From NCBI RefSeq assembly GCF_003334385.1, contig NZ_QOWN01000208.1: a DNA stretch of 308 nt. One strand, 5' to 3'. This document shows, piece after piece, positions 56-308 of the stretch (its first letter is position 1; each line of letters begins with the position of its first letter). The notes under the pieces were generated by a model that did not search any database, had not been told where the DNA came from, and saw only the letters and a list, made by a program, of their open reading frames with translations. The translations under genes and the position numbers were made by a program. Source of the stretch: Escherichia coli. Lineage in GTDB: Bacteria; Pseudomonadota; Gammaproteobacteria; Enterobacterales; Enterobacteriaceae.

Positions 56-80
56 AACACATTTCTGCCATGCTAAAGAG

Positions 81-115
81 AAACCCCGGTATCAGCAGAT
101 ACCGGGGTTTTCTTT
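81..115 (+). terminator. Rho-independent (intrinsic) transcription terminator
   Basis: Perfect inverted repeat: left arm AAACCCCGGTATC (81-93) pairs with right arm GATACCGGGGTTT (98-110) around an AGCA loop (94-97). The GC-rich core is 10 bp (84-93 with 98-107), followed by the T-rich run TTTTCTTT (108-115). An A-rich stretch upstream (AAAGAGAAA) would give a weaker U-rich tract on the reverse strand, so it may act in both directions. Confidence 0.85.
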
Positions 116-182
116 CATGTCCACCGATAATCCTGTTGGTAAAAACCGGTAATGGCATAAAAATTCTGAATATCTTCACATT

Positions 183-210
183 TTCACAAACTGACTGTGG
201 CGCGTATAAT
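183..210 (+). promoter_or_regulatory. Sigma70-type promoter: -35 TTCACA (183-188), 16-bp spacer, -10 TATAAT (205-210); predicted start near G217
   Basis: The -10 hexamer matches the TATAAT consensus exactly and the -35 matches TTGACA at 5 of 6 positions, with 16-bp spacing. The region upstream (about 157-182) is A/T-rich and UP-element-like. A purine at 217 lies 7 nt past the -10. There is no extended -10 TG. Confidence 0.6.
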
Positions 211-216
211 TTCGCT

Positions 217-308
217 GCGTTAGTGTTTTTTTGCCCGAGTAACAAAAACAACTCCTTAACTCTAATCTTTGTCTGTCCCCGCAGCTCCGCGATCACTGCG
301 GGATTTTT
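217..308 (+). ncRNA. Candidate small regulatory RNA of about 90 nt (alternative: terminated 5' leader or attenuator of a gene beyond the window)
   Basis: The segment is bounded by the predicted promoter start (~217) and the intrinsic terminator at 278-308. It has no ATG; the only GTG (223-225) has no Shine-Dalgarno. It contains AACAAAAACAAC (241-252), an (ARN)4 pattern of the kind bound by the Hfq distal face, then CUCCUU (252-257), complementary to the AAGGAG Shine-Dalgarno consensus, and ends in a hairpin plus U-tail. I could not match it to any sRNA sequence I remember. Confidence 0.35.
278..308 (+). terminator. Rho-independent terminator (3' end of the candidate sRNA or leader)
   Basis: A 7-bp stem, CCCGCAG (278-284) pairing with CTGCGGG (296-302), with five G-C pairs and an 11-nt loop (285-295), followed by ATTTTT (303-308). 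The T-run reaches the window edge, so its full length is unknown. The T-tract lies 3' of the stem only on the forward strand, which gives the orientation. Confidence 0.65.

Follow-up and report, generated by a model that had tools for sequence, protein, structure and literature searches.

A predicted small RNA gene between the lambdoid prophage tail genes I and J of Escherichia coli, very probably a divergent allele of EcOnc22/23/24

The DNA segment analyzed here (termed the window) is a 308-nt sequence from Escherichia coli. Comparison with an identical UPEC copy shows that it fills the entire intergenic space from tail gene I to tail gene J of a lambdoid prophage; both genes are on the opposite strand. 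The I–J position is also found in 12 phage copies and in the prophages Sp15, Sp14 and Sp11 of E. coli O157 Sakai. The features of the window are shown in Table 1. The gene arrangement is most likely that of a small RNA gene inserted in the manner of a moron between I and J and transcribed against both tail genes. Related sequences (alleles) were compared in alignments of 14 I–J gaps, of 12 RNA regions, and of 56 distinct alleles obtained from 141 IMG/VR copies.

Table 1. Sequence features of the 308-nt I–J gap (numbered from the first nucleotide of the window).
Feature	Position	Strand	Remarks
G+C-rich hairpin, A-run before and T-run after	80–111		14 pairs, 7 of them G-C; between the small RNA cassette and gene J
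CRP-like box TCTGA-N6-TCACA	165–180	+	candidate activator site
Sigma-70 promoter TTCACA-16 bp-TATAAT	183–210	+	−35 box at 183–188, −10 box at 205–210
Predicted small RNA, ~92 nt, divergent EcOnc22/23/24 allele	~217–308	+	from promoter and terminator
U7 run near the 5′ end	226–232	+	U5–U8 across the family
(ARN)5 tract AGUAACAAAAACAAC	238–252	+	candidate Hfq distal-face binding site; ARN-type run in 56/56 alleles
CUCCUU, C/U-rich, complementary to AAGGAG	252–257	+	candidate part of a seed
AAUCUU	264–269	+	predicted unpaired in the consensus structure; candidate seed core
Rho-independent terminator	278–308	+	arms CCCGCAG (278–284) and CUGCGGG (296–302), 11-nt loop, U-tail from 304

The sigma-70 promoter has 11 of 12 consensus matches (0.2 such sites expected), and promoter and terminator are both kinds of site that occur far above shuffle expectation. 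The start of the transcript at G217 was placed from the position of the −10 box, and the 3′ end is in a U-run that continues past the window and reaches 8 U in the genome. The −10 box is kept across the family as TATAAT, AATAAT, GATAAT or TATCAT. The window allele has a consensus −35 box; other alleles do not keep this element, and none is recognizable in the Sakai allele, which is expressed. The absence of a −35 box in the Sakai allele fits an activator-dependent promoter, as expected.

A candidate for the activator site is the CRP-like box. It is the only match to TGTGA-N6-TCACA at one mismatch or less, with 0.02 expected by chance. Among 14 BLAST-retrieved copies the two half-sites never change, variation being confined to the N6 spacer, and the distance from the box to the −10 box is free of gaps in 55 of the 56 alleles. 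The center of the box is ~43.5–44.5 bp upstream of the transcription start (a distance that depends on a predicted start), i.e. ~2–3 bp beyond the class II position of −41.5. Because of this offset from the canonical position, control by CRP is put forward as a hypothesis and not as a result: cAMP-CRP may gate transcription of the small RNA via the 165–180 box. No mention of the CRP-like box was found in the literature searched.

Upstream of the small RNA promoter, the hairpin at 80–111 looks like a bidirectional terminator. Most other alleles display a different hairpin at the same place, CAGGCACCC..GGGTGCCTG, which is followed by TTGTTTTT on the minus strand. This hairpin shows a compensatory change (C:G to T:A) and forms a minus-strand terminator just before J. 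In the Sakai allele the upstream hairpin (positions 5742–5765 of the Sakai sequence L015) is likewise called as a minus-strand terminator. A possible role of such a terminator within the late tail operon is to shield J from transcription not modified by Q.

At the other end of the predicted RNA, the 3′ hairpin and U-tail reported in a sequence-only reading of the window are real. The seven base pairs of the terminator stem are invariant in 12 of 12 sequences, with the loop variable both in sequence and in length. The transcript ends 11 nt before it would reach the stop codon of gene I, with which it converges, and no gene follows on its own strand. Since it terminates, at a strong terminator, before the convergent gene I, the alternative that the motifs belong to an mRNA leader bound by Hfq is not supported.

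RNAalifold applied to the family RNAs shows the terminator to be the only part conserved as structure. The 5′ body folds weakly, and in ways that vary from allele to allele. In the window allele a weak A:U hairpin between the U7 run and the A-rich tract is possible, but the fold of positions 217–280 (−6.2 kcal/mol, z = −0.75) is no better than that of shuffled sequences and is not conserved. Burial in stable structure had been named as a finding that would count against a binding role for the segment at 241–262; no conserved structure extends over it. With weak folds in the body and none conserved, the segment is probably accessible. Rfam covariance models gave no match over positions 210–308 at E-values up to 10, and the weak sub-threshold matches at 62–189 are all due to the 80–111 hairpin.

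The sequence-only reading had drawn attention to four A-R-N triplets at 241–252 followed immediately by CUCCUU. The four triplets (AACAAAAACAAC) are present, and the register in fact begins at position 238 (AGU AAC AAA AAC AAC), so that the tract is an (ARN)5. CUCCUU is also present at 252–257; it overlaps the tract by one base rather than following it, as C252 is shared with the last triplet. To estimate chance levels, 20,000 sequences of 92 nt, matching the transcript in composition, were simulated with a first-order Markov model. A run of four ARN triplets occurs in 2.3% of these, CTCCTT in 7.1%, and an ARN4 run with CTCC directly after it in 0.1%. At the size of the whole window (308 nt, one strand) the ARN4 run occurs in 8.9% of simulations. 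Thus either motif taken singly is weak evidence. It is mainly context and conservation that give the motifs meaning, i.e. ARN and CUCC are adjacent and both are conserved in homologues.

The alignments display a fixed order of elements. An invariant upstream block and the −10 box are followed by a 5′ GCGUUA, the U-run, a variable stretch and the A-rich run of ARN type; thereafter come (C/U)UCC, a variable stretch, [A/G]AUCUU, a further variable stretch and the terminator. The ARN-type run has at least two repeats in all 56 alleles and at least three in 53, and YUCC comes directly after it in 49. CUCC is frequent but not universal, being absent from 11 of the 56 alleles. The variants at the CUCCUU site are CUCCUU, UUCCUU, CUCCAU, CUCCCU and CCCCCU, with a few of UUCUCU, UUAUCU and CUCUUU. 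Within the RNA body, conservation is highest at the internal block AAUCUU, which reads [A/G]AUCUU in every one of the 56 alleles. Directly after this block the window allele shows a 4-nt deletion relative to AAUCUUCAUUUG in its closest relatives.

Outside these blocks the RNA body diverges strongly among alleles, with promoter and terminator held constant. Predicted RNA lengths range from 88 to 101 nt. One and the same variant of the terminator loop (e.g. UCCGCGAUCA, UUCCUGUCCGCGAUCA or UCCGCAACU) is found together with different 5′ and seed segments. The mosaic character of the alleles, as seen in the alignments, suggests recombination between prophage copies.

The family is widespread in E. 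coli. Of 5426 complete E. coli genomes, 1651 contain the 308 bases by a stringent search, and a single genome can have as many as 6 copies. A sensitive search detected the module in 1808 of the 5426 (33%), at 5543 places and with up to 11 per genome, and at none of these sites is it annotated. Only 46 records of the sensitive search are ≥99% identical to the window allele, which is thus a minor variant. EHEC, Stx phages and UPEC carry the family, often with several different alleles. In a collection with one genome per species, a strict pattern matched only E. albertii and two contigs of other organisms. The latter, with exact cassette matches, are a Collinsella sp. MAG (L023) and a 460-bp contig of Parendozoicomonas haliclonae (L024), and most likely represent contamination or mis-binning. 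As the species-wide scan gave only E. albertii and these two probable contaminants, no claim is made beyond Escherichia.

In one viral contig (L037, positions 8175–8550, minus strand) two different cassette alleles follow one another, with ~84 bp between them; both are complete with a CRP-like box, a −10 box, an A-rich tract, AAUCUUC and a terminator of their own.

An alternative is that the minus strand of the gap is coding, i.e. that the late mRNA contains a small cistron between I and J whose ribosome-binding site is AAGGAG, the complement of CUCCUU. Sequence conservation in the gap would then be due to coding. On that strand AAGGAG is followed 6 nt later by TTG, and the frame is open across the whole window. 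In addition, the reverse complement of AAUCUUCAU gives ATGAAGATT in 59% of copies, which begins a short open reading frame (MKIN...), and two phage records carry hypothetical proteins annotated in the I–J gap. These frames are poorly kept among copies, however. The window frame (>90 aa) closes after 13 aa in the ASU11 copy, which is 96.5% identical, and in the Sakai allele the motif that resembles a Shine-Dalgarno sequence is not followed by a start codon. The MKIN open reading frame is without an ATG in 41% of copies, including the window (where ACA is found), its lengths vary from 15 to more than 35 aa and its C-termini are unrelated. It shifts in frame because the length of the A-run varies, and the indels in the alignment are of 1, 2, 4, 7 and 8 nt. 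The RNA that has been detected experimentally is on the plus strand. A coding role for the minus strand is therefore considered very improbable.

The annotated gap proteins mentioned are at positions 2958–3158 of L002 (ASU11_gp9c) and 1520–1618 of L004, on the strand of the tail genes, and one of them runs through the terminator hairpin. They are probably over-predictions; RefSeq PGAP annotates nothing at this place. Long open frames that span the window on both strands were also considered, in L001, at 7947–8465 (+, 172 aa) and 7958–8449 (−, 163 aa). They are not conserved, and the double open frame over a 341-bp gap looks like a chance occurrence, though an unusual one.

The RNA predicted in the window can be related to RNAs detected in E. 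coli O157 Sakai. Hfq-CRAC peaks termed EcOnc22 (in Sp15), EcOnc23 (in Sp14) and EcOnc24 (in Sp11), all on the plus strand, are given in Table S2 of Tree et al. 2014, and the Sakai RNA is ~85 nt by northern blot and is destabilized in an hfq deletion (Tree et al. 2014). The published coordinates refer to NC_002695.1. The shift to NC_002695.2 was calibrated at +136 bp by comparing the Term-seq 3′ end of StxS1 (published as 2,925,944) with the tR′ U-run at 2,926,079–81; cross-checks gave about +137 to +144 for AgvB1 and +133 to +138 for AsxR. In the current Sakai record each of the three peaks falls in an I–J gap, equally far from J, which is on the minus strand. With the shift applied, the EcOnc22 peak corresponds to L015 5851–5911 and reads AUGCCUGAAAAAUAACUCCAUAACGUUAAUCUUCAUCGUUCUCUCCCGCAGCUCCGCUAAC. 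In the Sakai allele it takes in the A-rich tract, CUCC and AAUCUUC as well as the 5′ terminator arm. Compared with the Sp15-type allele, the window is 72.9% identical over 152 nt (E = 3e-16).

Chimeric reads from RNase E-CLASH agree with this assignment. In PMC5286369 the EcOnc22/23/24 half of the chimeras is GCCTGAAAAATAACTCCATAACGTTAATCTTCA, which is identical to L015 5853–5885, and one read ends in ...CUGCGGGAUUUUUUU. Thus locus, strand, homology and the sequence of the CLASH reads agree and establish the family identity: the window RNA is very probably a divergent allele of the EcOnc22/23/24 family.

Several of the reads in supplementary file 9 of the same publication begin at the same base (GCCUG...; L015 5853–5927). 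In one of them ...CUGCGGGAUUUUUUU is joined straight to GCCUG..., which is like a circularized species of ~75 nt extending from GCCUG to the U-tail. The common start could be a processed 5′ end or an artefact of RNase trimming. The few partners of the Sakai allele in these CLASH records (yjbJ, ECs5349 and ECs4701) are supported by 1–2 reads, with unconvincing statistics (PMC5286369). The yjbJ fragment starts at the first bases of the listed yjbJ coding sequence, at a place where the coordinate shift is uncalibrated. No complement of the Sakai site for yjbJ (AACGUUAUGG) is found in the window allele. In a 2021 review the targets of EcOnc22 are given as unknown, and literature searches with sequence strings from the RNA gave nothing relevant. 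An identity with EvrS (Esr023) was considered as well; that RNA is 154 nt long and single-copy, and is hence a different RNA.

These data bear on the proposal of the sequence-only reading that the segment is part of a small RNA with an Hfq-binding scaffold. The small RNA is supported by its own promoter and terminator. Hfq binding holds for the family through Sakai EcOnc22, where the CRAC peak extends over the homologous A-rich/CUCC segment and the RNA is hfq-dependent; Hfq crosslinking, hfq dependence and mRNA chimeras on RNase E all belong to the Sakai allele only. The favored interpretation, given a probability of about 0.55, is that the window encodes an Hfq-dependent, trans-acting base-pairing small RNA of class II-like layout within the EcOnc22/23/24 family. 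On Hfq, the proximal face would be occupied by the terminator U-tail and the distal face by the (ARN)5 tract. Targets encoded by the host or by other prophages would base-pair with the C/U-rich, unstructured stretch from CUCCUU to AAUCUU. We infer the distal-face contact of the ARN tract, the bases of the seed and the targets. CUCCUU as an anti-Shine-Dalgarno seed is plausible but unproven, and it is not a property of the whole family since CUCC is missing in 11 alleles. The earlier reading thus appears largely right as to the kind of molecule and unproven in the detail of the anti-Shine-Dalgarno seed.

The RNA is also perfectly complementary to the I–J intercistronic part of the late tail mRNA and is opposite the late operon in every copy, so that a cis-antisense role and a trans role are not separable by sequence. 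In a cis-antisense role the RNA would pair with this part of the late mRNA, produced by its own prophage upon induction or by a superinfecting relative with the same allele, and would trigger cleavage by RNase III or RNase E. The outcome would be a lower expression of J and of downstream genes, or an RNA-based superinfection exclusion in which alleles represent specificities. Lambda OOP and STnc6030 of the Salmonella prophage BTP1 are precedents; STnc6030 is antisense to injection and tailspike genes and excludes BTP1 but not P22. The strong divergence of the RNA bodies between a constant promoter and terminator is in keeping with such specificities, and all copies examined, namely the window, its close relatives and the Sakai allele, have a hairpin that separates the cassette from J.

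Other properties are not those expected of an RNA that acts purely in cis. Neither an invariant AAUCUU nor a conserved ARN run would be needed, and the Sakai RNA is abundant and Hfq-dependent in uninduced lysogens and has been recovered in ligation products with chromosomal mRNAs. Since the target region, ~60–260 nt upstream of J, does not code for protein, any effect on J must be indirect. STnc6030, at 786 nt, overlaps coding sequence, unlike the 92-nt intergenic RNA. Two different tandem alleles in one gap are unneeded for self-targeting, whereas tandem alleles, each with its own promoter and terminator, fit diversified trans-acting specificities. Taken together, AAUCUU, the ARN run, Hfq dependence in uninduced lysogens and the tandem alleles suit a trans role better than a cis role, and the cis-antisense explanation is considered rather unlikely.

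A trans-acting RNA could also act on other small RNAs instead of mRNAs. Two sponges for small RNAs, AgvB and AsxR, were described by the same group in Sakai prophages; their ARN motifs bind Hfq at its distal face. An anti-sRNA sponge of this type would use its A/C-rich tract to mimic an mRNA site, titrate a core small RNA and thereby de-repress the regulon of the latter. The tract AACAAAAACAAC is C/A-rich and resembles GcvB target sites, and in one CLASH table (PMC5286369, supplementary file 4) the EcOnc22 coordinates (2902729–2902766) are labelled ‘asxR2’. This label, given despite the absence of AsxR sequence in common, may be a working name that hints at a suspected anti-sRNA role. The locus differs, however, being the I–J gap and not the PR′ moron site of AgvB and AsxR, and there is no similarity to the 42-nt 3′ domain that these two RNAs have in common (a control comparison of AgvB1 with AsxR gave 93% over 42 nt). 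Complementarity to core small RNAs was tested for GcvB only. The predicted pairing with GcvB is matched by ~40% of shuffled sequences for the window, 37% for the Sakai allele and 17% for positions 238–262, as compared with 2% for AgvB1. Among the EcOnc22/23/24 chimeras in the CLASH records retrieved there is no small RNA partner. A sponge role is thus considered quite unlikely.

Two related proposals were rejected. Identity with AgvB does not hold, AgvB being located at the PR′ moron site with no sequence in common. An anti-GcvB sponge role was dropped because the pairing is no better than that of shuffles, whereas AgvB1 stands out.

Returning to the trans-acting RNA, the window represents a real but ordinary member of a known, functionally uncharacterized family of prophage small RNAs, and it confirms and extends this class. 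What is new is the invariant CRP-like box, the unannotated presence in 33% of complete E. coli genomes and the mosaic alleles. The family was detected in 2014 and no function has been assigned since, and genome pipelines leave it unannotated. Once the window is assigned to EcOnc22, what was an unnamed intergenic motif becomes a gene open to experiment, with a defined promoter and with candidates for a CRP input, an Hfq site and a seed.

A broader and decidedly speculative proposal is that the I–J gap hosts a standard cassette, consisting of a constant promoter gated by CRP, a constant terminator/Hfq scaffold and an exchangeable pairing segment, with the alleles representing different RNA specificities. 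If this is true, the specificities could be directed against superinfecting phages by pairing with late tail mRNA, or they could retune host genes according to carbon status, and a third of E. coli genomes would carry a widespread, unannotated regulatory layer. Specificities for host targets or for phage exclusion would be relevant to the biology of prophages and their hosts in pathogenic E. coli. The finding gains weight only if the allele series turns out to represent specificities or if control by CRP is borne out.

Of the known systems, EcOnc22 is the closest. Both RNAs are encoded in the I–J gap antisense to the tail genes, and the lengths are comparable (92 nt predicted for the window, ~85 nt by northern blot for Sakai). 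The upstream box, −10 box, U-run, A-rich tract, (C/U)UCC, AAUCUU and terminator stem are homologous. Over the 152-nt module the two are only 73% identical, and the window allele differs by its consensus −35 box, the 4-nt deletion after AAUCUU and a different upstream hairpin. The presumed pairing region is CUCCUUAACUCUAAUCUUUGUCUG in the window and CUCCAUAACGUUAAUCUUCAUCGUUCUCU in Sakai; since these differ, the targets of the two alleles may differ as well.

ChiX, a model class II Hfq-dependent small RNA of E. coli K-12, binds both the proximal and the distal faces of Hfq. It displays the same order of elements as the window RNA, i.e. an ARN run (AAUAAUAAAAAA), a U/C-rich stretch of anti-Shine-Dalgarno type (UUCCUCUUUGA) and a terminator with U-tail. 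There is no sequence homology between the two, and ChiX is a core-genome gene with chiP as target and the chb mRNA as decoy.

AgvB and AsxR are, like the window RNA, short Hfq-binding RNAs of prophages with ARN motifs, and they also form multi-copy allelic families with variable 5′ parts. They differ in their location at the PR′ moron site and in their common 3′ domain, which the window RNA does not have, and the latter shows no significant complementarity to GcvB. STnc6030 and OOP are similar in being expressed in the lysogen and transcribed against phage genes, which in the case of STnc6030 are late structural genes. STnc6030, with its 786 nt, overlaps coding sequence and OOP overlaps the 3′ end of cII, whereas the window RNA, at a predicted ~92 nt, is wholly intergenic.
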